From Deltaproteobacteria bacterium (GTDB lineage: Bacteria > Desulfobacterota > JAENJC01), in NCBI GenBank assembly GCA_030646755.1, contig JAUSKU010000036.1, forward strand, positions 3,465 through 67,464: a stretch of DNA of 64,000 bases, read 5' to 3'. Positions 15,301-37,349 of the stretch are shown piece by piece (position 1 is the stretch's first letter; every line of letters starts with the position of its first letter). Both the position numbers and the translations under genes were made by a program. The notes beneath the pieces are model-generated. The model ran no database searches, was not told the origin of the DNA, and worked only from the letters and a program-made list of their open reading frames with translations.

Positions 15301-16897
15301 TGTGGCTGATTCAAATAGCAGGACTGTAAGTTATCAATATGATTCTATTGGAAACAAAACGAAGCTGACATATCCAGAAGGCTCAACGGTTACCTATTCC
15401 TATGACACAGCAAACAGGCTTAAATCCATCGTTAACGGCGGCGGTAGGACCTACACATATTCATACGACAGCCTGGGAAGAAGGTCAAAACTGAGCCTGC
15501 CTAATGGGACAAGCGCAAACTATTCCTATGACGCAAGTGGGAGGCTGATAGGTCTGATTCATAAGGCTTCCAATGGCTCTGTAATCACACAATACAGCTA
15601 CACCCACGATAAGGTCGGCAACCGGCTATCTAAGACCAACACCGATGTTAAGAATGATTATAGCTATGATGCTATATACAGGCTTCTCCAGTCCTTACCA
15701 GCAAAGCTTCAGGGAAAAGATATAACTCAAGACAATAAGGCCGAGGCTTTTAACTATGACCCTGTAGGAAATAGACTCACAGGGCCGGAAGCAAAGGACG
15801 GCTATACTTACAATACTGCAAACCAGCTAACCAGTGACCGCATGCATCAATACGAATATGATAAGAACGGAAACCTTGTAAAGAGGGTTGAGACCGAAGA
15901 CGATGGAGCGGCAAAGGTCTGGACGTATTCTTATGATTATGAAAACAGGCTGAACAAGGTTGTTAAGCAGGAAGATACCAAAATCACAACGGTCGCCTTT
16001 AGGTATGATCCTTTTGGAAGAAGGCTTGAAAAGAAGGTAGAGGAAACTAAGGACGGGAAGACCGACACAAAGACTTATGCCTATGTTTACGACAACGAAG
16101 ATATAATCCTCGAATATCTCACAAAGACGGAGGACGGCAAAACTAAGACAGAAGCCACTAAATATGTTCATGGCCCAGGAATTGATGAACTTTTGGCTAT
16201 TGAACGCAAAGGAGAGGTCTATTTCTATCATGCCGATGGGCTTGGCTCTGTCACTGCTTTAACAGATAAAAAGCAAAAGGTGATTGAAAGCTACACTTAT
16301 TCGTCATTTGGTGAGGTTAAGAGAAAAGGAGATAAGGTAAAGAATACCTATACGTTTACTGCACGAGAGTGGGATGAGGAAATAGGCTTATACTATGTGC
16401 GCGCCCGTTATCTCGACCCCGTGACCGGACATTGGACGTCGTTTGACCCACTGTTGCATCCCGCAAATGGGGCATCAAAATTCAAAGGATGTTCACAAAA
16501 CATTGGCCATCCTACTTTTGATAAGTTAATGAAAAAGCCGCAGAAACTCAATCCGTACAATTATGTCGAGGCAAACCCTATAATGCTAAAAGACCCAACT
16601 GGATTAGGTTCATGTGGCTCTGGGAAGAATGAACCATATGTGCCAGACAATTATGGATTCTATAATCTTACAGGACCTTGTGAGAACCACGATAAGTGTT
16701 ACGGCACATGCGGCAATTCAAGAATTATGTGTGACCTATTTTTATTTGCGGACATAATGAAGGAATGCTCAAAACTGACCTGGGACCCAATAAATCAAGT
16801 CGGTTGTATTGAGGTTGCATATATCTATTATGGGTTCGTGGCTACTTTTGGCCAAAAACCATATAATGAAGCACAAAAAGCTGCTTGCTGTACATAA
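12347..16897 (+). CDS. Secreted RHS/YD-repeat polymorphic toxin with a Cys-rich C-terminal tip
   Basis: Signal peptide MKILKFAILMMLGLLFFIPTPSSA; DCDD..NP metal-binding-like motifs; an Ig-like segment; about 40 YD repeats (YxYDxxGN); RHS core end YYVRARYLDPVTGHWTSFDP; demarcation motif DPTGL; then a 96-aa tip. Confidence 0.9.
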   Translation: MKILKFAILMMLGLLFFIPTPSSAYTLQDVQNYLDTHPAPSGCSNWTEEYTSNGQKGVKVWKRCGDWTVASYEVTATGPQDNWGYYGGARFCDGTQNTGAGWPVYKLCDVTSKYTYCNGAVWERHQNSCVSSWTWGIASPCLLEKTVYSDCKNLDTLLTTFFPITNCVDGDYDGFYKYDAVWCSQGNDCDDGNLKINPNTYWYKDADNDGYSDGTTTGPQCQRPAGYKLASELKSMENDCDDTQSQFNPEHPCCDLKINMDKNAVTISPSTGGGIQITGSISDSSNKAVEWEVALPNGKTEKGTGKTISVTWDGKGSDGKVIKPEPGQTMELAASVNAKETDNPDCKDSKSIPIKIEWVKDACMLKVTVGSSANVANGNLSHSQELFSTKGTGLTIYYNSLDSYTGPLGKGWSHNYDMEIGESIDGYVIVREGDGGRRVYTNNGGSYTSQPGDYTALIKNADGTFIITYKEGTRYDYNAIGKIAAIADRNGNAVSFTYNSGNDLASITDSAGRTTSLSYNADHRISTINDLNGNIHSFTYSGSDLISVTTQSSVVSQQSWSYTYYENSFMHTKTDPNGYTTTYTYDEDHRVATSTDPEGNVKSIAYPQADDTSQTKTTTVTEKDGGNWTYTYDTQAGTLTSKTDPENGTASYTYDENRNMTSKTEPDGSVTSYTYDSNGNMALQTDALDQTTTYTYNAYGLVTSITDPQNNTTTYEYDTTGNLTKTTDATGASTSYQYDAKGNVIQIKDAVGQTTSFTYDQQNNLSSITDPTGATISFTYDTAGNMTSQTDASGATTRFEYNSLGRLIKVIDPSGNSTNSTYDNNGNKTSETDANGNTTDYEYNYKGQLIKVKDALGNVTTYTYGGTGCSSCGGGTDKLTVITDANGNTTSYEYDKLGRLIKETDPLGNAISYSYDSKGNLLSKTDANSAVISYSYDSLGRLLKKAYPDNTTESFTYDSKGNILTATNSNTSYTFGYNTSGKVTSVADSNSRTVSYQYDSIGNKTKLTYPEGSTVTYSYDTANRLKSIVNGGGRTYTYSYDSLGRRSKLSLPNGTSANYSYDASGRLIGLIHKASNGSVITQYSYTHDKVGNRLSKTNTDVKNDYSYDAIYRLLQSLPAKLQGKDITQDNKAEAFNYDPVGNRLTGPEAKDGYTYNTANQLTSDRMHQYEYDKNGNLVKRVETEDDGAAKVWTYSYDYENRLNKVVKQEDTKITTVAFRYDPFGRRLEKKVEETKDGKTDTKTYAYVYDNEDIILEYLTKTEDGKTKTEATKYVHGPGIDELLAIERKGEVYFYHADGLGSVTALTDKKQKVIESYTYSSFGEVKRKGDKVKNTYTFTAREWDEEIGLYYVRARYLDPVTGHWTSFDPLLHPANGASKFKGCSQNIGHPTFDKLMKKPQKLNPYNYVEANPIMLKDPTGLGSCGSGKNEPYVPDNYGFYNLTGPCENHDKCYGTCGNSRIMCDLFLFADIMKECSKLTWDPINQVGCIEVAYIYYGFVATFGQKPYNEAQKAACCT

Positions 16898-17326: not shown

Positions 17327-18365
17327 GGGTCAGGTCTACATTCTTGACAGAATAAAATTCCTTTGATAAGTTTCGAGGCAAATACTTGAAACACTCAAAG
17401 GAGGCGAAGATGGCCAGGCCGTTAAGAATCGAATATCCCATGCGTTTTACCATGCGACATCGCGAGGGAATGAAAAGAAGGAGATATTTAAAAGCTCGGG
17501 GGATCGGGAGAAGTTTCTTGAATACCTGGAATCAGCCGTCACTCGATATGGAGCCGTCATTCATATATACTGCCTTATGAGCAACCATTACCACATACTG
17601 CTTGAAACGCCTCTGGGGAATCTATCTCAGATAATGCGCCACATTAACGGCGCTTACACGACATATTACAATACGAAGAGAAAAAGGGCCGGGCATCTAT
17701 TCCAAGGTCGGTATAAAGCCATACTTATACAAGCGGATGAATACGCAAAAGAGCTTTCCAGGTACATACACCTGAACCCGGTAAGAGCTGGGATAACAGC
17801 CAGGCCGGAAGAATACCACTGGTCCAGTTACAAAGCCTATGCTGGTAAAGGAAAGAGACCCGAATGGCTCACGACTGACTTTATCCACGGATTCTTTGAC
17901 AGGAACAAGACAAAAGCCCAGGAGAAATACCAACGGTTTACAAATGAACTGATTGGTAGTGAATACGAAAGCCCGCTAAAAGAAACAATTGCATCCACGA
18001 TACTTGGAAGACAAGATTTTATAAGCGAAATAACGGAAAAACACATAGGCAAAAAAAAGAAAGACCGCAATATTCCTGCACTGAGAGAGCTTTTGAGGAT
18101 GCCGACAATAGAAGAAATCATAAACAAAGTCAAGGCGGCAATGGGAGAAGATGAGTATCTGGCAACATCTGCAAGCATCTATTTATGTCACAAGCACAGC
18201 GGAGCAAGACTAAAAGAGATAGGCACCCGCTTTGGAATAGGAGAATCAGCGGTATCGCAGGCAAGCCGCAGGTTTGCGTTTAAAATAGCAAAGGATGTTA
18301 AATTGAAGAAGGCGATAGAAAGGATAGAGGGTGAGTTAAATGTGTCAAGAGTGTAGACCTGACCC
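17327..18365 (+). mobile_element. RAYT/IS200-like Y1 transposase unit bounded by 23-bp inverted repeats (decayed)
   Basis: 17327-17349 gggtcaggtctacattcttgaca matches the reverse complement of 18343-18365 at 22 of 23 positions. The repeats enclose the Y1 transposase pseudogene. Confidence 0.55.
17410..18356 (+). pseudogene. Y1 (HUH) tyrosine transposase with a DnaA-C-like HTH tail, frameshifted near 17440
   Basis: MARPLRIEYP reads in one frame, then AFYHATSRGNEKKEIFKSSGDREKFLEYLESAVTRYGAVIHIYCLMSNHYHILLE continues in the +2 frame. HUH motif NHYHILL; Tyr motif RYIHLNPVRAG; C-terminal LKEIGTRFGIGESAVSQASRRF. Confidence 0.6.
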
Positions 18366-23869: not shown

Positions 23870-24127
23870 ATGGTGATAAAGGTTTTGAACATAGGTTTTG
23901 GAAATATAGTTTCTGCTGCAAGAGTTGTGGCAGTTATATCACCTTCTTCTGCGCCTATGAAGAGGTTGAAGGAAGAGGCCAGGGAGAGAGGCAAGCTCGT
24001 GGATGCCACCGAGGGAAGGATGACACGTTCAGTAATCATTACAGACAGCGACCATGTCATACTTTCTGCCCTTCAGACGGAGAGGCTTGCAGAGAGGCTT
24101 GCAGAGGGAAAGGTTGCTGATGCGTAA
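23870..24127 (+). CDS. remA: DUF370 / RemA-family regulator
   Basis: [56 protein letters not shown]. Confidence 0.85.
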
Positions 24128-24725
24128 AGGGCTTATCTTTGTTGTGTCTGCCCCTTCGGGGGCAGGAAAGACATCTTTGTGCAAAAGGGTCGTTGACCTT
24201 TTCACAGACCTTCGCCATTCCATCTCATATACAACAAGGGCTCCGAGGGGAAGTGAGAGGGACGGGGTTGATTATAATTTTGTATCTGAAGGCAGATTCC
24301 TTGAGATGGTAGAGAATGATGAATTTGTTGAGTGGGCATTTGTCCATGGAAACAGATACGGGACTGCCGAGGATTCGTTAAGGAGATGTGAGGAAGAAGG
24401 GATAGATGTCATCCTGGATATAGATGTCCAGGGTGCGGCACAGATAAGGAAAAAGCTTAAGCGCGGCGTCTACATATTCGTTCTCCCTCCCTCCCCGGAA
24501 GACCTTGAAAAGAGGCTTAAGGGAAGGGGAACAGATGGGGATGAAGTGATAAGGGAAAGGCTCTCGAATGCAAGGGAGGAGGTAAGTCAGATATCTAATT
24601 ACGACTACATAATCATTAATGACCTGTTTGATGATGCAGCAGAGAGGCTTAAATCAGTCATAGTTGCGGAGAGATGTGGAAAGGACGCAGTTTTCCCGCA
24701 GATAAAGGAGAAATGGAAATTTTAA
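24120..24725 (+). CDS. gmk: Guanylate kinase
   Basis: Starts [20 protein letters not shown] (P-loop); contains [20 protein letters not shown]. The ATG overlaps the remA stop. Confidence 0.93.
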
Positions 24726-24778
24726 ACGCAAGGCATAGGGTCGATTCACCAATTAACCGTTTTTAAAGGAGGAGTAAT

Positions 24779-24976
24779 ATGGCAAGAATAACCGTTGAAG
24801 ATTGTTTGCAGAAGGTAGAAAACCGGTTTGCGCTGGTGATGCTGGCAACCAAAAGGGTCCGTCAGCTCAAGCATGGGGCCCACCCGCTGGTCAACCCGAG
24901 GGAGAATAAAGATATCGTGATTGCTCTTAGGGAAATTGCCGAGGGGAAGGTCAAGGCTGTAGCTCCTGGTAAATAA
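24779..24976 (+). CDS. rpoZ: DNA-directed RNA polymerase subunit omega
   Basis: Starts [30 protein letters not shown]. Confidence 0.92.
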
Positions 24977-24993
24977 TACTCAAGGTTAATAGG

Positions 24994-25037
24994 CTAAGAG
25001 GTTAAGAGGTTACTCCCTTTTGACCTTTTAGTTTTTT
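24994..25037 (+). terminator. Intrinsic terminator of rpoZ
   Basis: A 16-bp hairpin, ctaagaggttaagagg / ccttttgaccttttag (13 Watson-Crick pairs plus 3 G:U), has a 6-nt loop and is followed by T6. Confidence 0.7.
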
Positions 25038-25178
25038 CTGTTCCTTCTCCTCATTTTTTTCTTCTTTTGCCGTCCGTGGATGGTATCTCAATTATCTTTG
25101 CGCCAGACCTGGCTATTTAGATTGTTTTGTTATGTCAAAATGTGCTATTTTTTAACTTAAATTTTGATAATAGCAAAT

Positions 25179-28061
25179 ATGAACTTTACCCCATACCACG
25201 CCAAATACTTTGCTTACGAACTCACAAAGAGGAGTTCTTCTGACAGCATCCAAAAGCTGGCTGCGACACTTCTGGATGCTCAGGTTGACCTGAACCCGCA
25301 TCAGGTCGAGGCTGCACTTTTCGCCTTTCGTTCCCCGTTGTCCAAGGGGGCTGTTCTGGCAGATGAAGTTGGTCTGGGAAAGACCATAGAGGCCGCGCTT
25401 GTGATCTCCCAGAAGTGGGCGGAGCGTAAGAGAAAGATACTTGTCATAACCCCTGCCAATCTCCGCAAACAATGGAGCCAGGAACTATTGGACAAGTTCT
25501 TCCTCCCTTCCATGATTATGGAAACAAAGTCTTTCAACGAGGCGGTAAAGGCCCGTAACCTTAACCCTTTCGAATCTAAAGAAATAGTTCTTTGTTCATA
25601 CCAGTTTGCCCGTTCTAAAGAGGCTTATATCCACTCAGTTCCGTGGGACCTGGTCGTAATTGATGAGGCTCACCGGCTAAGGAATGTTTACAAGTCGTCA
25701 AACAAGATCGGAAAATCCATTAAAAAAGCCCTTGAACATGCCCCAAAGATATTGCTTACCGCCACGCCACTTCAAAACTCATTACTTGAGCTTTACGGTC
25801 TTGTAAGCATTATAGATGACTACGCCTTTGGAGATATAAAAAGCTTCCGGACACAATACAGCCGGGCCAACAGTACACCGGATGAAAAGGTCTTTCAGGA
25901 ACTCAAGGAAAGGCTCAAGCCCGTTTGCAAGAGGACCCTTCGCAGGCAGGTCCTTGAATATATCAAATACACCAACCGCATAGCATTGGTTGAAGAGTTC
26001 TACCCTACTCCTGAAGAACAGAGGCTTTATGACCTTGTCTCGGATTATCTGCAAAGCGAGAGCCTATACGCCCTTCCTACCAGCCAGCGCCAGTTGATGA
26101 CCCTGATACTCAGAAGGCTCCTGGCCTCTTCAACCTTTGCCATTTCCGGCACTCTGGCGGTATTAGCAGGGAGGCTTGATAATCTCGTTTCAACCCATAC
26201 CCCCGGCAACGGTGGTGTAGATGAGACCATTTCAAGCGACTTTGAGACCTACGATGAACTAAAAGACGAGTGGGAAGAAGACGGTGAGGAGGCGGGAGAA
26301 GAGCCAAAATACACAGAGCATGACATTGAAAATATTAAGGCCGAGATAAGTTCCCTGAATGAGTTCGAGAAACTGGCAAAATCCATTAGCAAGAACTCAA
26401 AGGGTGAAAAGCTGATTACTGCCCTTGAGAGGGGTTTTACGGAGCTTGAAAGACTGGGCGCTAAGCGCAAGGCAATTATCTTTACCGAGAGCACCCGCAC
26501 CCAGGAGTATCTGCGGAAAACCCTTGAAGAAAGGGGATATGCCGGGAAGGTCGTTCTTTTCAACGGTTCAAACAACGATCCAAAATCAAGGGAGATTAAC
26601 AAGAACTGGATAGAACGACACAAGGGCACAGACAGGGTATCCGGCTCAAAGACAGCGGATATGAGGGCGGCCATTGTGGATTACTTCCGTGAGGAAGCAA
26701 CCGTAATGATTGCCACCGAGGCAGCAGCGGAAGGGATTAACCTTCAGTTCTGCTCCCTGGTGGTCAATTACGACCTTCCATGGAATCCGCAGCGGATAGA
26801 GCAGCGCATTGGCCGTTGCCACCGTTACGGCCAGGAGTTCGATGTGGTTGTTGTGAACTTCCTGAACAAGGCCAACGCCGCAGACCAGAGGGTCTATCAG
26901 TTGCTTAACGAGAAGTTCAACCTGTTCAATGGCGTGTTCGGTTCCAGTGATGAGGTCTTGGGAAGCATAGAAAGCGGTGTGGATTTTGAAAAGAGGATCG
27001 CAAGGATATACCAGGAGTGTCGCACCTCTGAACAGATAGAAACGGCCTTTAACGAATTACAGTCTGAGCTTGAGGGGCAGATATCGGACACCATGAAGCA
27101 GACCAGGACGCAGTTGCTTGAGAACTTTGACGAGGAAGTTCACGAAAAGCTCCGTATCAACCTGGAAGAGAGCAAGGCTTACCTGTCAAAGTATGAAAAC
27201 TGGCTCTGGAGCATTACCCGCTTCTATCTCGGCAACGATGCAGATTTTGCAAGTGATGAACATTCTTTCAGCCTCAAACGCAACCCGTTCCCGGACACAC
27301 AAATACACCCAGGCCCTTATCGCATAGGAAAGAATATTGACGAGTCCAACGTGTACCGCATAAGCCACCCATTGGCACAGGGTATTATCGCCCGGTGTAA
27401 AGAATACAGTTTGCCCGAAAAGGAGTTGGTCTTCGATTATTCAGGTACGCCAAAGAAGATTTCCATACTTGAACCGCTTGTCGGTAAGTCAGGCTGGTTA
27501 ATGGCACAGGTGCTCTCCGTCTCTTCTTTTGAAACAGAAGATTATGTCCTGCTGAGCGGGTTCGCCTCCGGTGGCCTGGCATTGGATACGGAGCAATGCC
27601 GCCGCTTGTTCTCACTGTCTGCTGCCGAAAGGGGCGCAGATATTCAAATCACGAATACCGATAATAAAAGCCTGAAAGATAACCTTGCGTCCCAGAAGAA
27701 CGTCATATTGAGCGATATAAACACCCGGAATGCCGATTACTTTGAGCAAGAGCTGGAAAAGCTGGATAAGTGGGGAGAAGACCGCAGGAATTCGCTGAAA
27801 ATCACCCTGAAGGAGTTGGACGACCAGATCAAGGAAATAAAGAAGCAGGCCCGTCTTGCCCCAAATCTGCCTGAAAAGTTGAAGTTGGAGAAGGAAAGGC
27901 GTAAACTGGAGGCCCAAAGAGACGAGGCCTGGAGAGAATACGATGGGGCAGCAAAGGAGATTGAAAAGAGCAAGGACGGCCTGATTGATGAGATTGAAAA
28001 GAAGCTCAGTCAGGAGATAAAGGAAGAACAGCTCTTTTTGATTAGATGGACGTTAGCGTGA
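25179..28061 (+). CDS. SNF2-family ATPase/helicase with a long C-terminal extension ending in a coiled coil
   Basis: Motifs LADEVGLGKTIEA, VIDEAHRLRN, LLLTATPLQNSL and NYDLPWNPQRIEQRIGRCHRYGQ. The C-terminal ~340 aa belong to no recognised family, and the last ~100 aa are K/E-rich heptad-like. Confidence 0.85.
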   Translation: MNFTPYHAKYFAYELTKRSSSDSIQKLAATLLDAQVDLNPHQVEAALFAFRSPLSKGAVLADEVGLGKTIEAALVISQKWAERKRKILVITPANLRKQWSQELLDKFFLPSMIMETKSFNEAVKARNLNPFESKEIVLCSYQFARSKEAYIHSVPWDLVVIDEAHRLRNVYKSSNKIGKSIKKALEHAPKILLTATPLQNSLLELYGLVSIIDDYAFGDIKSFRTQYSRANSTPDEKVFQELKERLKPVCKRTLRRQVLEYIKYTNRIALVEEFYPTPEEQRLYDLVSDYLQSESLYALPTSQRQLMTLILRRLLASSTFAISGTLAVLAGRLDNLVSTHTPGNGGVDETISSDFETYDELKDEWEEDGEEAGEEPKYTEHDIENIKAEISSLNEFEKLAKSISKNSKGEKLITALERGFTELERLGAKRKAIIFTESTRTQEYLRKTLEERGYAGKVVLFNGSNNDPKSREINKNWIERHKGTDRVSGSKTADMRAAIVDYFREEATVMIATEAAAEGINLQFCSLVVNYDLPWNPQRIEQRIGRCHRYGQEFDVVVVNFLNKANAADQRVYQLLNEKFNLFNGVFGSSDEVLGSIESGVDFEKRIARIYQECRTSEQIETAFNELQSELEGQISDTMKQTRTQLLENFDEEVHEKLRINLEESKAYLSKYENWLWSITRFYLGNDADFASDEHSFSLKRNPFPDTQIHPGPYRIGKNIDESNVYRISHPLAQGIIARCKEYSLPEKELVFDYSGTPKKISILEPLVGKSGWLMAQVLSVSSFETEDYVLLSGFASGGLALDTEQCRRLFSLSAAERGADIQITNTDNKSLKDNLASQKNVILSDINTRNADYFEQELEKLDKWGEDRRNSLKITLKELDDQIKEIKKQARLAPNLPEKLKLEKERRKLEAQRDEAWREYDGAAKEIEKSKDGLIDEIEKKLSQEIKEEQLFLIRWTLA

Positions 28062-28155
28062 GAGTCTAATAACCGGATGCCCGACAGTAGGCTTCGGGCA
28101 TGACAAATTAAATGCAATGGTGATTTAGAAGATGAAAAAACAGTTACCAAAAAAC

Positions 28156-28182
28156 TTGACACAGGTAAGCGACTGTTATAGT
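28156..28182 (+). promoter_or_regulatory. Putative extended -10 promoter in the SNF2/DUF1016 spacer
   Basis: TTGACA (28156-28161), a 15-nt spacer, then TGT-TATAGT (28174-28182). Confidence 0.45.
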
Positions 28183-28293
28183 TTAGCATCAACAACACCT
28201 GCCACGCCTCTCGTGATAAACGATGCGCACCCCGGCGGGTTTTTTTATGCCTGAAATATGGGAACAGTCTATGTCGAAAGGGTCGTCTGAACT

Positions 28294-29334
28294 ATGACAA
28301 AAAAAATACCGGTTCAATCACATCGGAAACTGTTCGAGAATATTAAGACTCTTCTGAACGATGCGAGAAAAGCCGTTGTCAGGAATATCAACTCCGCCAT
28401 GGTGATGACCTATTTTGAAATAGGCAGAATGATAGTGGTGGACGAACAGCAGGGAAAAGTACGGGCTGACTATGCCAAGGAGACCCTGAAGAATCTTAGT
28501 CTTGATCTTACAAGGGAATTCGGCAAAGGATTTTCCGAGAGAAACCTTGAAAATATGAGAAAGTTTTACCTATCGTATGCCCCAAAGATTTCGCAAACAC
28601 TGTCTGCGAAATCCGAGACAGTGTCTCGTATCTCAGCGCAGGCCTTACCCCTTGGCTGGTCGCACTATCTCCTTCTGATAAGGATAGCCAATGAGGAAGA
28701 GCGGCGCTTTTATGAGATAGAAGCAGCCAGTCAGAACTGGTCAGTTAGAGAGTTGGAGCGTCAGTTTAATAGTTCTCTATACGAACGGCTGGTATTAAGC
28801 CGGGATAAAAAGAAGGTTAATGATCTCAGTGAAAAAGGGCATATCCTTGCAACAGCGCAGGATGTCATTAAAGAACCGTATGTTTTAGAATTCCTGGGCA
28901 TAAAGGAAGAGAGCGCCTACTCGGAAAACGATCTTGAATCCGCAATTATCAACAGGATAGAACACTTCATGCTGGAATTGGGCAAAGGGTTTCTTTTTGC
29001 GGGGAGACAGGTCAGATTTTCTTTTGATGAGGAGCATTATTATGTTGATCTGGTATTCTACAACCGCCTGCTTAAATGCTTCGTGCTCATTGACCTGAAG
29101 ATCGGCAAGCTTAAACATCAGGATCTGGGACAGATGCAGATGTATGTCAATTATTACGACCGCTATGTGAAATCTGCGGATGAAAACAAGACTATCGGCA
29201 TCATTCTATGCAAAGATAAGCACAAGGCATTGGTTGAAATAACCTTGCCTGAAGACAATGAGCAGATTTTTGCCCAGAAATACCAGTTGTATCTGCCAAG
29301 TAAAGAAGAACTTAAAAAGCAGTTGGAGGAATGA
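28294..29334 (+). CDS. DUF1016 / YhcG-family PD-(D/E)xK nuclease
   Basis: C-terminal YVLEFLG..FLFAGRQVRF..YYVDLVFYNRLLKCFVLIDLKIGKL..GQMQMYVNYY is typical of YhcG-like proteins. Confidence 0.8.
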   Translation: MTKKIPVQSHRKLFENIKTLLNDARKAVVRNINSAMVMTYFEIGRMIVVDEQQGKVRADYAKETLKNLSLDLTREFGKGFSERNLENMRKFYLSYAPKISQTLSAKSETVSRISAQALPLGWSHYLLLIRIANEEERRFYEIEAASQNWSVRELERQFNSSLYERLVLSRDKKKVNDLSEKGHILATAQDVIKEPYVLEFLGIKEESAYSENDLESAIINRIEHFMLELGKGFLFAGRQVRFSFDEEHYYVDLVFYNRLLKCFVLIDLKIGKLKHQDLGQMQMYVNYYDRYVKSADENKTIGIILCKDKHKALVEITLPEDNEQIFAQKYQLYLPSKEELKKQLEE

Positions 29335-29365
29335 AGTAATAGGTGTTCCGGGCGACAAAAGGGGG

Positions 29366-29401
29366 TGTCATTCCCGCAGTTTTTAGGCGGGAATCCATAG
29401 G
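29366..29401 (+). repeat. Conserved hairpin element, copy 1 (attcccgc/gcgggaat)
   Basis: An 8-bp stem with a 9-nt loop, 32 nt after the DUF1016 stop. A related copy with a compensatory stem change lies at 46630..46665 (minus). Confidence 0.6.
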
Positions 29402-29452
29402 AGTTTTCTGGATGTCCGACAGAAGCGACAATAGGCATGAGGAGATGTAAAA

Positions 29453-31357
29453 ATGGCAGAGATAGAAAAACTGGACCTGACTTCTATGGACATAAAGGAG
29501 CACCAGATTGAAAAGCTGAAAGAGCTTTTCCCTGAAGCGTTTACGGAAGGGAATAAGATAGATTGGGACAGGCTCCGCCGCACCCTTGGAGAGCAGATAG
29601 ACGCCGGGAAGGAACGCTATGGCATGAACTGGCCGGGAAAGGCCGATTGTTTCAGGACCATCCAGCAGCCAAGCATCGCAACCCTTGTCCCTGCCCGTGA
29701 GGAGAGCGTTGATTTTGATACCACGCAAAACCTGTTTATAGAAGGCGATAATCTGGAGGCGCTGAAGCTGCTGCAAAAATCCTACCTCGGCAAGATCAAG
29801 ATGATCTACATAGACCCGCCGTATAATACAGGGAACGACTTCATTTATCCCGACAACTACACAGAGAACCTTGATACATATCTTGCCTACACTGGACAGG
29901 TGGACGCGGAAGGCCGCAAGTTCGCTACCAACACCGAAACAGATGGACGCTTCCACAGCAAATGGCTGAATATGATGTATCCAAGGCTGTTTCTGGCAAA
30001 AAACCTGCTGAGAGAAGACGGGGTGATTTTCATTTCTATTGATGATAACGCGGTGCTGAACCTGCGGACAATTTGTAATGAGGTTTTTGGGGAAGAAAAT
30101 TTCATCGCTGAACTGGTGTGGCAGAAAAAAACTGGCGCAGGGGCAAAGAGCAAGGGATTTATTAGACTTCATGAATACGTACTTTGTTACGCTAAGTCAA
30201 TTAGTCCAACTTGGGATATAGCGGCTCCCATGTCCGAAAAGACAAAGGCCATGTATAACAAGAAAGATGAGTACTTTGATCAATTAGGGCCTTTCGCAAC
30301 ATGGCCACTTGATACTACCAGCATGGATGAGCGAGCTAATCTTAGATTCCCGATTTTCCACGAGGGGAATGAGATTTGGCCGAGAAAGCAATGGCTCTGG
30401 TCACGGGAACGAGTGGAGCGTGCGCAACAACAGAACAAACTTGTTTTCAATCATAATGAGAAGGACAACAGCTGGAGTGTTAGATTTAAGGGATATCTTT
30501 ATGACGAGGATGGAGAAGAGAAGTCGGGCAAGCCGACTTCAGTAATGATTGGCCCTTATACCCAAGAAGGTACTAAGGACTTCCAAAAATATTTCGACCG
30601 CGACGTTTTTCCTTTTCCGAAGCCGGTCTCTCTTCTGAAGCAACTTCTGTCAATTCGGGTAGAAGGGGTGGAAGCTACTGAAGAAGATATAGCGCTGGAT
30701 TTTTTTGCTGGTTCGTCAACGACAGGGGAGGCAGTACTCCGTCTGAATCAGGAGTGCCCAAAAAAGACAAAATTCATACTGGTACAGCTCCCTGAGCCCT
30801 GCACCGAAGACAGTGAAGCCTACAAAGCAGGCTACAAAACCATAGCCGATATTGGCAAAGAGCGCCTCCGTATGGTTATCAAGAAGATTAAAGAGGAACA
30901 TTCGGAAAAGACCGATATGTTCAAAGGAGATATTTCCTCGCTTGACCTGGGCTTCAAGGTCTTCAAACTTTCCAAATCTAACTTCAACATCTGGGATTCC
31001 AACGTGGAAAAGACCCCGGAGGCCCTTGGCCGACAGTTGGAGCTTCATACCAGCCATATCTCAGCAGAGGCTTCTCAGGAGGCCATTCTCTTTGAACTGC
31101 TTTTAAAGTCCGGGTTTGAGCTTACAACGCCCATCGAAAAGCTGACGTTGGAGGGCAAGACAGTTTACAGCATTGCGGAAGGGGAACTGCTTATCTGCCT
31201 TGATAAGCATCTGACAAACGAGGTGATTAAGGCAATGGCCGAAAGGAAGCCAAGCCGGGTGATATGTCTGGATGAAGGGTTTCAGGATAATGACCAGTTG
31301 AAGACAAATGCAGTGCAGATAATGAAGAGCAAAAACGTTGTTTTCAGGACGGTGTAA
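29453..31357 (+). CDS. mod: Type III restriction-modification methyltransferase (Mod, N6-adenine, beta class)
   Basis: Motif IV IYIDPPYNTGNDF precedes motif I DFFAGSSTTGEA, with a variable central region between them. gaggag SD. Confidence 0.9.
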   Translation: MAEIEKLDLTSMDIKEHQIEKLKELFPEAFTEGNKIDWDRLRRTLGEQIDAGKERYGMNWPGKADCFRTIQQPSIATLVPAREESVDFDTTQNLFIEGDNLEALKLLQKSYLGKIKMIYIDPPYNTGNDFIYPDNYTENLDTYLAYTGQVDAEGRKFATNTETDGRFHSKWLNMMYPRLFLAKNLLREDGVIFISIDDNAVLNLRTICNEVFGEENFIAELVWQKKTGAGAKSKGFIRLHEYVLCYAKSISPTWDIAAPMSEKTKAMYNKKDEYFDQLGPFATWPLDTTSMDERANLRFPIFHEGNEIWPRKQWLWSRERVERAQQQNKLVFNHNEKDNSWSVRFKGYLYDEDGEEKSGKPTSVMIGPYTQEGTKDFQKYFDRDVFPFPKPVSLLKQLLSIRVEGVEATEEDIALDFFAGSSTTGEAVLRLNQECPKKTKFILVQLPEPCTEDSEAYKAGYKTIADIGKERLRMVIKKIKEEHSEKTDMFKGDISSLDLGFKVFKLSKSNFNIWDSNVEKTPEALGRQLELHTSHISAEASQEAILFELLLKSGFELTTPIEKLTLEGKTVYSIAEGELLICLDKHLTNEVIKAMAERKPSRVICLDEGFQDNDQLKTNAVQIMKSKNVVFRTV

Positions 31358-31359
31358 CA

Positions 31360-32121
31360 GTGGATATGTCTCAGCATATTTCTGAATATATCGAGAAAAT
31401 AGGGGAAGAGGTTCTGCTGGATTACAGCAACTACCCTTTTCTTTCGCAGCAAGATTACGATTTTGGATATAGCATTGCGGCCTCCGCCGTCTTTTCATCC
31501 AATATCGAGGGAAACACTGTTGACCTCAACTCTTACATGAATTGGCGAATGGCCAAAAAACCCTCAAAACCAACCAAAGAGATTGAAGAGATTGAAAACC
31601 TTATCCGGGCGTATGAGTTCTGCCGACAGCATCCCCTGACGGAGGACTCTCTTTTAAAGGCCCATCGGCTCCTGTCGCAGACGCTGCTGATCAAATCTAA
31701 ACGCGGACGTTACAGGCAGGAGCGGACTGGCGTATTCAGCGAGAAAGGGTTGGTCTACCTTGCAGTAGAGCCTGAACATCTGGAAGGCGAAATGACCCTT
31801 TTTTTCAAGGAAATTACCGGCCTTCTCCATCAAAAAATGAATCCGGCAGAGATTTTATATTATGCAGCCTTCATCCATCTGCAGTTCGTTCATATTCACC
31901 CCTTTGCCGACGGCAACGGCAGAATGGCCCGGCTGCTGGAAAAGTGGTTTCTGATCGCCCATCTCGGAGATAAACTCTGGACTCTGCCTTCGGAAAAATA
32001 CTACAGGGAACGACAACAGGAGTATTACCGCAACCTGAATCTGGGGGTGAATTTTTATGAACTCGATTATGGACGGGCATTGCCATTTTTATATATGCTC
32101 CCCCGCACACTGAAGAGGTAA
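31360..32121 (+). CDS. Fic/DOC-family protein (AMPylase-type motif) embedded between mod and res
   Basis: Fic motif HPFADGNGRMAR (31897-31932). N-terminal inhibitory-helix-like motif SSNIEGN. Starts 2 nt after the mod stop and ends 4 nt before the res start. Confidence 0.88.
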   Translation: MDMSQHISEYIEKIGEEVLLDYSNYPFLSQQDYDFGYSIAASAVFSSNIEGNTVDLNSYMNWRMAKKPSKPTKEIEEIENLIRAYEFCRQHPLTEDSLLKAHRLLSQTLLIKSKRGRYRQERTGVFSEKGLVYLAVEPEHLEGEMTLFFKEITGLLHQKMNPAEILYYAAFIHLQFVHIHPFADGNGRMARLLEKWFLIAHLGDKLWTLPSEKYYRERQQEYYRNLNLGVNFYELDYGRALPFLYMLPRTLKR

Positions 32122-32125
32122 AGTT

Positions 32126-35035
32126 GTGAAGATAAAATTCGACAGCACCCAGCAATATCAGATAGACGCGGTTCACAGCATAGTGCAACTGTTTGATGGT
32201 CAGCCCATTGAAAAAGGGGATTTTACCATCATAGAGCAGCATGACTTCATGGGCAGCCGGATACAGACGGAACTTGGGCTTGGGAACAATCTTGTTTTGA
32301 ATGAAGAAGCCTTGCTCAAGAATCTTAGAGCTGTCCAGGAGCGTTACGACCTTGACCATATCCCTGAAAATGAGTTTAAAAAGAACGGCCTGAACTTTTC
32401 TGTGGAGATGGAGACGGGGACAGGCAAGACTTACGTTTACCTGCGCACTATCTTTGAACTGAGCCTTAAATACGGTTTTAAGAAGTTTATAATTGTGGTG
32501 CCAAGCGTGGCCATAAGGGAAGGCGCTCTGAAGAACATAGAGATTACCGGGGACCACTTCAAGGCCCTTTACAACAATATCGAATTTGAACACTTCGTAT
32601 ATGATTCCAAGAAGGCCAACAGGTTGAGGCAGTTTGCAACAAGCAATCAGATTCAGATAATGGTGATAAACATTGACGCCTTCCGCAAGGACTTCTCGGA
32701 CAGTGAAGACGAGAAGAAGAGCAACGTGATATTCAAGGAGAATGACAGGTTGTCAGGCCGCAAGCCTATTGAATTTGTCCAGGCAACAAACCCGATAGTA
32801 ATAATTGACGAGCCTCAGAGTGTGGACAGTACCCCTAAATCTCAGGATGCCATTAAATCGCTCAATCCCTTATGCATCTTCCGTTATTCCGCAACCCATA
32901 AGAACCCCTACAACCTGGTCTATAAGCTGGATCCAATCAAGGCGTATGGCCTGCGCCTTGTGAAGCAGATTGTGGTTGCCTCCGTGACAGGGGAGAATGC
33001 CCAGAATAATGCATACGTGAAGCTATTGGCGGTAGACAACAAAAACGGAATCCGCGCCAGGGTCAAGATACATGTTCAGACCAAGAGTGGGGTGAATGAA
33101 AAGGATATTTGGGTAAAACAGAGCGCTGATTTATTTACTCTTTCCAATGAAAGGGAGGCTTATCGGCACGGCTTTGAGGTGCTGGACATAAGCGCTGAGC
33201 CTGGAAATGAGTTCATTGACTTTAATACAGGACGCATCTACCAGGGGCAGGAGCGCGGAGGAATCCAAGAAGACCTGATGGAAATTCAGATCAGGAACAC
33301 GATAAAAAAGCATCTGGAAAAGGAGTTGCAGCTAAAGGACAAGGGTATAAAGGTCCTCTCCCTTTTCTTCATTGACAGAGTGGCTAATTACCGTACTTAC
33401 GACGAGTCGGGACAACCTAAGAAGGGGACTTTTGCAGAGTTATTTGAACGGCATTATCTCGACTTGTTAAAGATGCCGCAATACTTGGGACTTGATACCC
33501 ACCCGGTTGATAAGATACACGACGGGTATTTTTCGCAGGACAAAAAAGGGGTCATCAAAGACACCAACGGAGCAACGCAGGCGGACGACGATACCTATGC
33601 AAAGATCATGAGAAACAAAGAGCAGCTTCTTTCTCTGGAGGAGCCGCTGAAATACATCTTCTCCCACTCAGCATTAAGAGAAGGCTGGGACAATCCAAAC
33701 GTCTTTCAGATATGTAACCTTAGAGAGATGAGGGTTGAGACGGAAAGGCGGCAGACCCTAGGGAGGGGCCTAAGACTTCCGGTGAATCAGAACGGCGAGA
33801 GGGTCTTTGATGACAATATTAATAAGCTGACAGTTATAGCAACCGAAAGCTATGCAGAATTTGCTTCGGGCTTGCAGACAGAATATGAGAAGGACTGCGG
33901 CGTTACCTTCGGCAAAATTCCTATGATCGGATTTGCCAGGATCGCCCGTGTCATAGAAGACCGGGAAGAGCTTATCGGCAGGGAACAGTCTGAAAGGATT
34001 TGGGCGGAGCTGGTTGCAAAGGGATTTATTGATGGAGGCGGAAAGATTCAACCTTCCTTTAATCCACAGAAAGAAGGCTTTACATTAGGCCTGTCCGGCG
34101 AGCTGAAGGACATCGAAGAAGAAGTAATGGCCGTTCTTCAATCATACCAGCTTGACCGTCATATCAAGAAGGATGAGGAACCTAAGCGCTTACGCATCAA
34201 CAAGCATGTTTTCCTCGACCCGGAATTTGAACGGCTCTGGAACAAGATCAAGCACAAGACCACCTATGAGGTGAAGTATTCCACTGATGAACTCATGGTC
34301 AATACAGTCAAGGCCATAAAGAAGATGGAAAAGATCGAGCCTGTGAAGGTGTCTTACAGGGAAGACCTCTTAAACCTGGAAAACAAGGGAGTTACAACCA
34401 GCCATATCAGAGGGAATGAAATAAAGCTGGACTACATAGGGACATTGCCGGACGCTATCGCTTACCTGCAAAAAGAAACGGAGCTAACCAGAAAGACCCT
34501 TGTTAGGATACTGACCGGAAGCGGGCGGCTTGATGAGTTTGCTGTCAACCCCCAGCGGTTCATGGATGCAACGGCAGCCATTATGAACCGGGAGTTGCAC
34601 AGACTTATGATTGACGGCATCAAGTACGAAAAGATTGCCGAACAGGAATGGAGTATGCGCCTGTTTGAAGATAAAGAGGTCTTGAGCTACCTGAACAATA
34701 GGCTGGAGGTGAAGAATTCCATCTATGATGCTGTAGTATACGACAGCGACATAGAAAGGAGATTTGCGCAAGAACTGGATAAGAGGGAGGATATAAAGCT
34801 GTTCGTAAAGCTTCCAGGCTGGTTCAGGGTTGAAACACCGATAGGAGAATACAACCCGGACTGGGCCGTTGTTAAACACAATGATGAAACCATTTACCTT
34901 GTAAGGGAAACCAAGGGAACAAGAGACTTTGAGAAACTACGTAACAGTGAGGCGGATAAGATCAGGTGCGGCAGAAGACATTTTGAGGCCCTTGGAGTTG
35001 ACTTTAATGTGGTTGTAGAGGCGGGGGAGGTATGA
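32126..35035 (+). CDS. res: Type III restriction endonuclease (Res: SF2 helicase plus C-terminal PD-(D/E)xK nuclease)
   Basis: METGTGKTYVY (Walker A), IIDEPQS (DEPQ box), ALREGWDNPNV, and a C-terminal nuclease region YNPDW..LVRETKG. Confidence 0.9.
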   Translation: MKIKFDSTQQYQIDAVHSIVQLFDGQPIEKGDFTIIEQHDFMGSRIQTELGLGNNLVLNEEALLKNLRAVQERYDLDHIPENEFKKNGLNFSVEMETGTGKTYVYLRTIFELSLKYGFKKFIIVVPSVAIREGALKNIEITGDHFKALYNNIEFEHFVYDSKKANRLRQFATSNQIQIMVINIDAFRKDFSDSEDEKKSNVIFKENDRLSGRKPIEFVQATNPIVIIDEPQSVDSTPKSQDAIKSLNPLCIFRYSATHKNPYNLVYKLDPIKAYGLRLVKQIVVASVTGENAQNNAYVKLLAVDNKNGIRARVKIHVQTKSGVNEKDIWVKQSADLFTLSNEREAYRHGFEVLDISAEPGNEFIDFNTGRIYQGQERGGIQEDLMEIQIRNTIKKHLEKELQLKDKGIKVLSLFFIDRVANYRTYDESGQPKKGTFAELFERHYLDLLKMPQYLGLDTHPVDKIHDGYFSQDKKGVIKDTNGATQADDDTYAKIMRNKEQLLSLEEPLKYIFSHSALREGWDNPNVFQICNLREMRVETERRQTLGRGLRLPVNQNGERVFDDNINKLTVIATESYAEFASGLQTEYEKDCGVTFGKIPMIGFARIARVIEDREELIGREQSERIWAELVAKGFIDGGGKIQPSFNPQKEGFTLGLSGELKDIEEEVMAVLQSYQLDRHIKKDEEPKRLRINKHVFLDPEFERLWNKIKHKTTYEVKYSTDELMVNTVKAIKKMEKIEPVKVSYREDLLNLENKGVTTSHIRGNEIKLDYIGTLPDAIAYLQKETELTRKTLVRILTGSGRLDEFAVNPQRFMDATAAIMNRELHRLMIDGIKYEKIAEQEWSMRLFEDKEVLSYLNNRLEVKNSIYDAVVYDSDIERRFAQELDKREDIKLFVKLPGWFRVETPIGEYNPDWAVVKHNDETIYLVRETKGTRDFEKLRNSEADKIRCGRRHFEALGVDFNVVVEAGEV

Positions 35036-35210
35036 GCCAGACAGATAGCGAAAAAAGCTGTTGTATTTCCATGTTGAGAAATTAACGGAAACAGAATTCG
35101 GAAAATCCTCCTCCAAAGTACCGACCTTCTAAAACCGATTTCCCTGTCAATATTAGGATTGCTTCCTCTCGGATGTTGATTTCCCACCATTTTTAAGCTA
35201 TCATAAAAAA

Positions 35211-37349
35211 ATGATAAGGCTTGACGATATCATAGAAAGGGTTTCTACCTATAATCCCACAGGCGACCTTGACATCATAAAGAAGGCCTATATTTTTTCA
35301 GCCAAGGTACACAAGGGACAGCTGCGTCTTTCCGGTGAGCCTTACCTCAACCACCCCATAGAAGTGGCGATGCTTCTGGCTGAGCTTAAGCTTGACCCTC
35401 AAACAATTGCAACAGGACTGCTTCATGATACGGTGGAGGATACCTTTGCCACTATTGAGGAGATCAGGGAGTTTTTTGGCCCTGAGGTGGCCGACATGGT
35501 TGACGGCGTGACAAAGATAGGAAAAATTGCCTTTGCCACCTCTGAAGAAAAACAGGCCGAGAACTTCAGGAAGATGGTCCTGGCCATGGGAAAGGACATA
35601 AGGGTCATCCTGGTCAAGCTTGCCGACAGGTTACACAACATGAGGACCCTGGAGCACCTATCACGGGAGAAACAGCTTTCCATCTCCCAGGAAACCCACG
35701 ACATATACGCCCCAATAGCCAACAGGCTCGGCATAGGATGGGTGAAGTCCGAACTTGAGGACCTTTCTTTAAGGTATTTAAAGCCGGACCTCTTCAATAA
35801 AATCTCCCGGATGGTGTCGGAGAAGTGGGCTGAAAGAGAAAAGTTTATAACTGACTTCAAGTCCGTTATCCAAACGGAGATGGAGAAGAATGGTATCCAG
35901 GGCGAGGTAACAGGGAGACCAAAACATATTTACGGTATAAGCAAGAAGGTGAGTGGAGAGCATATTGATCTCGACCAGCTAAACGACATCATGGCCTTTA
36001 GAATCAAGGTGGACTCCGTAAAGGACTGTTATGGCTCTCTCGGTATGATACATTCTCTTTGGAAGCCTGTCCCCGGTCGTTTTAAGGACTTCATAGCAAT
36101 CTCCAAGGCTAATGGGTATCAATCGCTGCATACTACCGTTATAGCTCCGAACGGCGAGAGGGTTGAGGTGCAGATAAGGACCAGGGAGATGCACAGGGTT
36201 GCCGAGGACGGGATTGCTGCCCATTGGAAATATAAGGAAGACAAGGCCTTCAGTCAGAAAGACGACAAGAGGTTTTCTTGGCTCAGGCAGCTTCTTGAGT
36301 GGCAGAGAGACCTGAAGGACCCTGGTGAATTCATGGAAACGGTAAAAGTGGACCTGTTTTCTGAGGAGGTCTACGTATTTACCCCAAAAGGCGAAGTAAA
36401 GGAGCTGCCCAGGGGTGCAACCCCACTTGATTTTGCATATAACATCCATTCCGACATAGGCCACAGGTGCGTCGGGGCAAAGGTCAACGGAAGGATAGTC
36501 CCTCTGAAGTATCAGCTAAGAAACGGCGACACGCTCGAAATACTAACATCCCCTACACACCATCCCAGCAAGGATTCGTTAAAGTTCGTAGTTACTCCCA
36601 AGGCCAAGGCCAGGATCAGGCAGTGGATAAATACCGAGGAGCGGGAGAGGAGCATTTCTCTGGGAAGGGAGATGATAGAAAAGGAACTTAAGAAGTATTC
36701 CTTTGAGTTAAGAAATGAGGACATCGGAAAGGTCGTGGCGGATTTGAGTATCCCTTCTGCTGAAGACCTTTACGCCAGGGTAGGATATGGGAAGCTCCCG
36801 GTTCATAATGTGTTGTCCCGCATAGTTCCAAAGGACAGACTTGCCGAATTTCAACAGAAACCTAAATTGGGACTGGCCAGTGTTATCAGCAGATTCAGGA
36901 AGAAGCCGGAAAGCGCCATAAAGATCCAAGGGTTGGAGGATGTCTTGGTCAGGTTTGCCAACTGCTGCAACCCTCTTCCGGGAGACAAGGTAATAGGGTT
37001 CATAACGAGAGGGAGAGGGGTTACAGTACATAGAGTGGAATGCCTTCTGGCTAAGGATATAGACCCTGAAAGGAAGGTAGATGTACAGTGGGACAGTAAG
37101 GCTGCCGGATCCAGGCCTGCAAAGATAGAGGTTGTTTGCGTTGATAAAAAGGGACTCCTGGCCGACATGAGTTCAACCATAACCTCTGCGGAGGCTAATA
37201 TAACAAGCGCCCAGATAAGGACCACTGAGGACAAGAAGGCCATAAGCGTCTTTGAGCTTGAGGTAGGGAGCGTTGAACAGCTTCAGAGGGTTATGGCGTC
37301 ACTTAGCCGGGTCAAGGGTGTGTTAAAGGTGGAGAGGCTGAGGGCGTAA
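35211..37349 (+). CDS. rel: Bifunctional (p)ppGpp synthetase/hydrolase (RelA/SpoT homolog)
   Basis: HD domain HPIEVA..LLHDTVEDT, synthetase YQSLHTTV, and TGS and ACT regions. 712 aa. Confidence 0.93.
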   Translation: MIRLDDIIERVSTYNPTGDLDIIKKAYIFSAKVHKGQLRLSGEPYLNHPIEVAMLLAELKLDPQTIATGLLHDTVEDTFATIEEIREFFGPEVADMVDGVTKIGKIAFATSEEKQAENFRKMVLAMGKDIRVILVKLADRLHNMRTLEHLSREKQLSISQETHDIYAPIANRLGIGWVKSELEDLSLRYLKPDLFNKISRMVSEKWAEREKFITDFKSVIQTEMEKNGIQGEVTGRPKHIYGISKKVSGEHIDLDQLNDIMAFRIKVDSVKDCYGSLGMIHSLWKPVPGRFKDFIAISKANGYQSLHTTVIAPNGERVEVQIRTREMHRVAEDGIAAHWKYKEDKAFSQKDDKRFSWLRQLLEWQRDLKDPGEFMETVKVDLFSEEVYVFTPKGEVKELPRGATPLDFAYNIHSDIGHRCVGAKVNGRIVPLKYQLRNGDTLEILTSPTHHPSKDSLKFVVTPKAKARIRQWINTEERERSISLGREMIEKELKKYSFELRNEDIGKVVADLSIPSAEDLYARVGYGKLPVHNVLSRIVPKDRLAEFQQKPKLGLASVISRFRKKPESAIKIQGLEDVLVRFANCCNPLPGDKVIGFITRGRGVTVHRVECLLAKDIDPERKVDVQWDSKAAGSRPAKIEVVCVDKKGLLADMSSTITSAEANITSAQIRTTEDKKAISVFELEVGSVEQLQRVMASLSRVKGVLKVERLRA

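Follow-up and report, generated by a model that had tools for sequence, protein, structure and literature searches.

Why would a Fic gene lie between the genes for the two subunits of a Type III restriction-modification (R-M) system? The question is raised by a stretch of 64,000 nucleotides (nt) from a Deltaproteobacteria bacterium (contig JAUSKU010000036.1), hereafter the window, in which a single Fic gene separates mod, encoding the methyltransferase/specificity subunit, from res, encoding the restriction subunit. An initial annotation had suggested two roles for the protein, either a toxin held in check by the R-M complex and released when a phage inhibits Mod/Res, or an enzyme that modifies Res or Mod. 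Our analysis leads to a different answer: on balance, Fic is probably a modular, co-transcribed effector of a second defence layer and not a dedicated partner of Mod or Res.

The three genes are all on the forward strand, as are the helicase and DUF1016 genes upstream of them described below. The mod open reading frame (ORF; positions 29453-31357, 634 amino acids (aa)) ends with a TAA codon at 31355-31357, the Fic gene occupies 31360-32121 (253 aa from a GTG at 31360, more likely 251 aa from an ATG at 31366), and res (32126-35035, 969 aa) starts with a GTG at 32126. The shorter reading of Fic agrees with the public gene call P0001 of 251 aa. At the mod/Fic junction (31355-31368) the sequence TAA-CA-GTG-GAT-ATG leaves 2 nt, CA, between the mod stop and the GTG, and at the Fic/res junction (32113-32128) the sequence GAGG-TAA-AGTT-GTG leaves 4 nt between the Fic stop at 32119-32121 and the res start; the tight packing first noticed in the raw sequence is thus correct to the base. 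The putative ribosome-binding site of res, a Shine-Dalgarno-like GAGG run 8 nt 5′ of the res start, is located within the final codons of the Fic gene. Because the gaps are only 2-8 nt and 4 nt long, co-transcription of mod, Fic and res and translational coupling between them appear likely; the earlier statement that the genes must form one transcript holds as an expectation from this spacing, not as a necessity. When the region was scanned for promoter and terminator consensus sequences, matches occurred at chance level and none was at the mod/Fic or Fic/res junction, and the GC profile along the surrounding island showed no compositional break at Fic. Two ORFs on the minus strand (31103-31498 and 31871-32593) were taken as spurious shadows of the coding strand. 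The Fic gene is neither a transposase nor an integrase according to Pfam and has the same orientation as mod and res, so it falls under the definition of an embedded gene used by Payne et al. 2024 (10.1101/2024.01.29.577857).

The Fic gene product matched the Pfam family Fic (PF02661) with E = 6.5e-18 and 65.8 bits against a cut-off of 24, and this domain was the sole Pfam match, with neither Fic_N nor a winged helix-turn-helix (wHTH) C-terminal domain found. The catalytic loop HxFx(D/E)GNGRxxR is intact and reads HPFADGNGRMAR at 31897-31932 (residues 180-191, numbered from the GTG). At 31495-31515 (residues 46-52), SSNIEGN corresponds to the (S/T)xxxE(G/N) motif of the inhibitory helix, with E50, or E48 when numbered from the ATG, as the inhibitory glutamate; S46-SNI-E50-G51 precedes the catalytic histidine by 134 residues. 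In an alignment of 44 family members, with a mean column identity of 63%, S44, N46, I47, E48, G49 and N50 (ATG numbering) were invariant, as were the H, P, F, D, G, N, G, R and the last R of HIHPFxDGNGRxxR, and the second serine of SSNIEGN and the alanine preceding the last arginine of the catalytic loop were conserved in at least 90% of the sequences. SSNIEGN also aligned with SLAIENN of 4RGL and SARIEGN of 7XUX. Both motifs had been read in this way in the initial annotation, and both readings are borne out by the family alignment.

A total of 2161 homologues were found at E <= 1e-3, nearly all of them 253-256 aa long and the closest about 60% identical. An AlphaFold2 model built with the 44-member alignment had a mean predicted local distance difference test (pLDDT) score of 91.9 and a predicted template modelling (pTM) score of 0.90, and it showed an all-helical core with a beta-hairpin flap at residues 122-132. 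Given the number of homologues, the invariant motifs and the confident model, the ORF is a real gene. A Foldseek search of the PDB returned only Fic proteins as top matches, many at a probability of 1.00, namely 4RGL (TMq 0.78), FICD, BT_2513, SoFic and CdFic. By its catalytic loop, Pfam match and fold, the protein is a member of the Fic/Fido domain family (PF02661), and since it carries an inhibitory motif in cis, on the N-terminal side of the core, it is predicted to belong to class II in the scheme of Engel et al. 2012, as outlined in PMC12249575. A class I toxin-antitoxin pair of the VbhT/VbhA type was considered and rejected; the inhibitory motif is in cis and there is no room for a small antitoxin ORF, since only 2-8 nt precede the gene and 4 nt follow it.

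Two proteins with solved structures are useful for comparison. Dde_2494 (PDB 4RGL, a structural-genomics entry) is the best match among solved structures in both sequence (E = 5.9e-18) and structure, and the inhibitory motif and the catalytic loop align; however, the two proteins are only 27% identical and Dde_2494 is 343 aa long with a C-terminal extension. SoFic (Millman et al. 2022; Shewanella SO_4266, PDB 3EQX; E. coli Sofic, PMC12249575) shares the class II core with (S/T)xxxE(G/N) and HPFxDGNGRxxR and gave a structural match with a TM score of about 0.66. In contrast to SoFic, which is about 370 aa long, the window Fic has 253 aa and is about 20% identical, and neither a repeat element nor a small ORF follows its gene. 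The PADLOC model for SoFic matched with 4.4e-30, limited to the Fic core at model positions 57-241 of 361, and the NCBIfam model ProtAdlyltaseSoFic gave 37.9 bits against an equivalog cut-off of 550. Together with the missing Fic_N and wHTH C-terminal domains, the partial match and the low score ruled out a SoFic equivalog, although PADLOC models would call the locus Type III R-M plus SoFic plus PDC-S02.

The R-M system that surrounds the Fic gene looks functional, because the catalytic motifs are present in both subunits and both align with their relatives from end to end. Mod matched Pfam N6_N4_Mtase and PADLOC MTase_III (686 bits) and carries DPPY at 29813-29824 and FAGSSTTG (FxGxG) at 30704-30727. 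Res matched Pfam ResIII and RE_endonuc, corresponding to a helicase and a PD-(D/E)xK nuclease, and PADLOC REase_III (1015 bits), and it carries TGTGKT (Walker A), DEPQ and PDW...ETKG. Alignments to relatives in tblastn covered q1-634 of Mod and q1-969 of Res, the C-terminus of Mod (...VFRTV*) matched that of its relatives, and the N-terminus of Res, (M/V)KIKFD, matched from residue 1. The order of Mod followed by Res, both apparently intact, identifies the pair as a Type III system by sequence.

The joint between mod and res was then compared in 80 loci that carry relatives of Res (42-72% identical), of which 69 show both the 3′ end of mod and the 5′ end of res. The two genes were separated by no more than 167 nt in 39 of the 69 loci and by 440-4933 nt in the other 30 (43%), where the gap held one or more genes on the same strand. 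In 20 of these 30 loci the last inserted gene overlapped the start of res by 1-17 nt or ended within 10 nt of it. Where nothing is inserted, mod ends in ...FRTV* and, after 4-15 nt, res begins with ATG AAA xxx AAA TTY GAC; both flanks are intact around the Fic gene of the window. With 30 of 69 gaps occupied and the flanks of the window gene preserved, the mod/res joint is a general insertion slot for accessory defence and toxin genes. The occupants were Schlafen/AlbA_2-ATPase (six loci), RhuM (four), DUF1016 (two, L116 and L118) and AAA_21 with DUF4276 (two), and, in further loci, TIR with GmrSD, Abi_2, PLD-like, DUF2326/ABC-3C, Hypoth_Ymh, DUF5131, DUF3800 and DUF3368; in one locus, L102, the slot held a protein with Fic_N, Fic and SoFic_C domains. 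The parallel that the initial annotation drew with genes inside Type I loci is therefore well founded, as the same classes of passenger fill the slot in related Type III operons. Six same-strand genes in the slot had no Pfam match at E <= 1e-3 (L047:7529-8434, L076:9379-10017, L085:4354-4926, L091:8851-9927, L092:9318-10004 and L101:8985-10004).

These observations can be joined into the explanation that we favour. In it, a stand-alone, auto-inhibited class II Fic gene has been inserted exactly at the mod/res joint of a Type III operon associated with an SNF2 helicase. Through translational coupling, Fic would be produced from the transcript of mod and res, so that its expression and inheritance would go along with those of the R-M system, while its own inhibitory glutamate would normally keep it off. 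During phage infection Fic would become active and AMPylate or otherwise modify a host protein; candidates would be EF-Tu and type II topoisomerases, which are known targets of related bacterial Fic enzymes. Bacterial Fic proteins reportedly AMPylate topoisomerase IV. The result would be a second layer of the abortive-infection type behind DNA restriction, in which Fic may work as an independent module and not as a subunit or a substrate-specific regulator of Mod/Res. SoFic was previously shown to protect against T5 (10.1101/2022.05.11.491447; PMC12249575), and another report states that it AMPylates EF-Tu (10.64898/2026.07.09.737422).

Next, the genomic surroundings of the window Fic family were surveyed in 39 genome loci and in 80 loci from metagenomes, 48 of which had a length of at least 4 kb; this gave 119 loci besides the window. 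The relatives in genomes were 46-60% identical and came from Bacteroidota, Calditrichota, Chloroflexota, Patescibacteria, Desulfobacterota and others. Searches by tblastn with Mod, Res, the SNF2 helicase and the DUF1016 protein of the window found no Mod or Res near the Fic gene in 41 genome loci, and Type III genes were likewise absent from the 80 metagenome loci; Type I genes were located 2-3 kb away in two of the latter. Clustering of the neighbours in 39 genomes revealed no conserved neighbours, just local synteny between near-identical metagenome-assembled genomes. A plasmid search showed that the window Fic has essentially no plasmid relatives; a plasmid search for an annotated mod-Fic-res unit was unproductive, and its best SoFic-like match adjoined conjugation genes. 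The family behaves like a patchy accessory gene. A conserved partnership between this Fic family and Type III systems was dropped as an explanation, because no mod or res lies beside the close relatives in the 39 genome and 80 metagenome loci, and the arrangement of the window does not recur among the sampled members of its own Fic family.

The idea of a guardian has to be weighed at this point. Here, Fic would be bound and kept latent by the Mod2Res complex, as PrrC is in its Type I system, and released or activated upon inhibition of the Type III enzyme by an anti-restriction protein of a phage. The position of Fic between two subunit genes and a coupled translation would favour co-assembly, PrrC in EcoprrI provides a precedent of the same logic (PMC12707154), and Fic genes have been captured twice independently in the same slot. 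On the other side, relatives of the window Fic had no Type III neighbours in any of the 119 sampled loci, the slot was empty in 39 of the 69 related Type III systems, and the cis inhibitory glutamate already gives latency. Taken indirectly, the comparative data speak against an obligate interface of Fic with the R-M enzyme. A PrrC-like guardian is accordingly improbable, and the strict version, in which Fic is co-assembled with Mod/Res, silenced by both the complex and its own glutamate, and triggered by an anti-restriction protein, is a touch more improbable still. If Fic were such a true guardian, it would be the first Type III counterpart of PrrC/EcoprrI and would offer a handle on the trigger of Fic-based anti-phage defence.

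The same survey bears on the second-layer effector that we favour, and several observations weigh against it. None of the 119 other loci of the family was embedded in or next to a Type III system, and Pfam identified sampled neighbours of the Fic gene as transporters, gyrA, an aminotransferase and a phosphoesterase, with no R-M gene among them. The family is little associated with defence islands: PADLOC gave few matches among 129 genes located at most two positions from Fic in 39 loci, and no R-M component was among the 25 most frequently matched models listed. To this can be added the low ProtAdlyltaseSoFic score, the fact that co-transcription is read from the gene spacing alone, and the missing C-terminal domain, which in E. 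coli Sofic was reported to be essential for toxicity (PMC12249575).

Several of these points would instead fit a non-defence passenger, a Fic with another cellular role or a purely selfish one, which gains linkage and expression from the operon but adds no immunity. Defence loci that tolerate insertions have been discussed in the literature as a "genomic sink", and such a passenger would agree with the high conservation of the family (63% mean column identity), with its location mostly beside ordinary genes, with an embedded copy that is unique among the 120 sampled loci and with the absence of the SoFic C-terminal domain. However, the other occupants of the mod/res slot are overwhelmingly of defence type, and the combination of no conserved neighbourhood with a patchy spread across phyla is typical of accessory and not of housekeeping genes. 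The seamless insertion, with a res ribosome-binding site that appears to have been rebuilt in the 3′ end of Fic, also suggests selection on the composite operon. We therefore regard a passenger without a role in defence as unlikely, though less so than the guardian.

The Fic protein found in the slot of L102 provided a further comparison. This protein (375 aa, in a subfamily of 371-375 aa) is 27% identical to the window Fic and is also of class II, with SSKIEG and HPFKDGNGR, but has Fic_N and a wHTH C-terminal domain. When 80 genome loci with an L102-type Fic were retrieved, 20 of them contained a complete mod-Fic-res unit and five more were partial or cut by contig ends. The mod-Fic-res architecture with a SoFic-like Fic was present in at least 20 species, usually in the gene order SNF2-DUF4391-Mod-Fic-Res, and at least eight other L102-type loci were HsdM-HsdS-Fic-HsdR operons of Type I. 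Recurrence of mod-Fic-res, which the initial annotation had proposed to look for, is thus found for the architecture, but the Fic protein there belongs to another subfamily than that of the window.

The complete Type III cases also made it possible to compare how the three proteins diverge. In 14 of them the median pairwise identity was 80% for Fic (range 73-98%), 47% for Mod and 37% for Res, and an L102-type Fic accompanies both of two Res clades whose mutual identity is only about 35%. The rank correlation of divergence (Spearman) was 0.27 for Fic and Res compared to 0.79 for Mod and Res. This weak co-divergence could mean either that Fic moves as a module between R-M operons or that Fic is under much tighter constraint than Mod and Res; movement is favoured because the same Fic occurs in Type I operons. 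Whichever is the cause, L102-type Fic does not track Mod or Res. Since Fic does not diverge together with Mod and Res and is also found in Type I operons, these comparisons argue against a dedicated partnership, both in the form of a Fic held in check by the complex and in that of a Fic that modifies Res or Mod.

Another proposed role is that of a regulator of restriction. Fic would then AMPylate Mod, Res or a host factor that controls them and in this way tune or delay restriction. Fic enzymes can both add and remove AMP, as described in 10.64898/2026.07.09.737422, and within the locus the position between mod and res is the one feature that speaks for this role. However, no co-divergence with Mod or Res is seen where mod-Fic-res recurs, most of the related systems work without any Fic, and the window Fic family is otherwise unlinked to R-M, which together make a regulatory role very improbable.

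Directly after the stop codon of the SoFic-like Fic genes of 371-375 aa there is an array of about 105 nt with three inverted repeats (L102 and L122-L199; for example L122:9129-9242; alignment A3). The array reads TTTGTGGAG-N8-CTCCACAAA, followed by -N16-18- and then -N8-, and in the SoFic-like cassettes it is a triple TTGTGGAG/CTCCACAA array. It was present in Type III, Type I and other contexts, with 4.1, 4.25 and 2.5 boxes per 300 nt downstream of the gene, respectively, and in the loci embedded in Type III operons there were 0.26 boxes upstream and 0.04 inside the Fic gene. In some loci all of the boxes had changed in concert. The array had no match in Rfam, and it is crossed by an ORF of 36-47 aa at the position where PMC12249575 places the "AS1 antitoxin" of E. 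coli Sofic. An operator for the wHTH domain of Fic, a structured RNA and a small protein are all candidates for its function.

The operon of the window also contains a helicase gene and a further accessory gene upstream of mod. The helicase, of the SNF2 family and DrmD-like, here called type A (25164-28061, 965 aa), matched Pfam SNF2-rel_dom and Helicase_C and PADLOC DrmD (2e-212). Among the Res-relative loci, an SNF2 helicase was located upstream of the Mod-Res core in 42 of the 62 in which that side was visible. Type A helicases were found upstream of mod in 17 related loci, abutting mod directly in 10 of them, and are thus a conserved upstream partner of this Type III family. In 25 loci a longer type B helicase was followed by a DUF4391 gene. 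This gene (about 230-270 aa) was a near-constant companion of the type B helicase upstream of mod (25 loci among L075-L121 and L122-L186; for example L126:5197-5997), and it is scarcely mentioned in the literature searched. Its product appears to be a fourth component, so far uncharacterised, of these Type III systems with a helicase. A class 1 DISARM system, which combines DrmD with DrmMI, DrmA, DrmB and DrmC, was considered for the window and rejected. The SNF2 helicase scored 712 bits with NCBIfam DISARM_DrmD_b, under the cut-off of 950, and was the only DISARM-like component, with no DrmA, DrmB or DrmC present and with the Type III genes mod and res as neighbours.

Between the helicase gene and mod lies a gene of the DUF1016/YhcG PDDEXK nuclease family (28294-29334), with matches to Pfam DUF1016_N and YhcG_C and to PADLOC PDC-S02 (7e-142). 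This gene is a second passenger, inserted in the SNF2/mod joint, because SNF2 abuts mod, with 12-116 nt between them, in 10 of the 17 type A relatives. The joint held 1-3.8 kb in the other seven, and it is a second slot. The spacer of 232 nt past the SNF2 gene (28062-28293) has three features, namely a stem-loop formed by ATGCCCGA...TCGGGCAT, a perfect TTGACA that has TAGTTT 17 nt downstream of it, and a T7 stretch after a GC-rich run (CCCCGGCGGGTTTTTTT), and its fold z-score is -2.1; it may be a terminator combined with a promoter for the DUF1016 gene, or it may encode a small transcript.

As a whole, the SNF2-DUF1016-mod-Fic-res genes form an island of about 10 kb (25164-35035) that interrupts a conserved housekeeping cluster, yicC-gmk-rpoZ-spoT/relA (24054-37349), with rpoZ (24779-24976) on one side and relA/spoT (35211-37349) on the other. 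Elsewhere in the window, positions 12347-16897 encode an RHS-repeat protein of 1516 aa with a C-terminal match to PLA2G12-like phospholipase A2, likely a polymorphic toxin, and a truncated IS200-like Y1 transposase follows at 17577-18356.

How new is this arrangement? Fic/Doc and RhuM toxins in R-M operons were previously described as a form of multilevel defence (Anantharaman et al. 2013, PMC3710099), and the TgvAB toxin/defence genes sit in a Type I cluster. Embedded genes were surveyed under the term "guilt by embedding" by Payne et al. 2024 in Hma, BREX, DISARM and Type I R-M systems. There, as in the window, the embedded genes have components of a single system on either side and run in the same orientation, and the passenger families are shared (Fic, RhuM, DUF1016 as PADLOC PDC-S02, GmrSD, ABC-ATPase pairs and Abi), whereas the Type III mod/res and SNF2/mod joints were outside the systems covered. 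PrrC in the Type Ic system EcoprrI is similar in being a latent toxin gene between R-M subunit genes, proposed to act as a backup when restriction fails. PrrC, however, is an ABC-ATPase/HEPN RNase found almost exclusively in Type I loci, and the R-M enzyme masks it physically, whereas the window protein is a Fic that brings along a cis inhibitor and belongs to a family normally without a link to R-M. Group three of the Type III systems in Murray et al. 2021 (PMC8259958), which has an extra helicase gene 5′ of mod/res, resembles the window in its helicase-mod-res order and in a helicase without a nuclease motif, the likeness being one of gene order, but in the window DUF1016 and Fic are added as passengers at the two joints. 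In the literature searched we found no paper on embedding in Type III operons or on a mod-Fic-res unit; in the genomes compared here it is common. Toxins embedded in R-M operons, including Fic/Doc, are thus already known and the window locus is a fresh example of this theme; what is particular to it, and unique in the sample, is a short Fic without a wHTH domain whose family has otherwise no connection with R-M.

What started as an oddity in raw sequence is thus a real and intact unit of three genes. It belongs to a known theme, that of toxin genes lying inside restriction operons, and a specialist would not be surprised by it. The locus and the Type III slot are useful for finding new defence genes, and by the logic of guilt by embedding the six slot genes without a Pfam match are candidates. 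The mod/res and SNF2/mod joints of helicase-associated Type III systems are as busy as the slots in Type I, BREX, DISARM and Hma systems, with 43% occupied in our sample, and the cassette of five genes, SNF2-DUF4391-Mod-Fic-Res, occurs widely in Proteobacteria and has apparently not been described. With two unrelated Fic subfamilies in one slot, Fic proteins embedded in R-M systems are convenient for asking what triggers this kind of defence, for example phage anti-restriction proteins.

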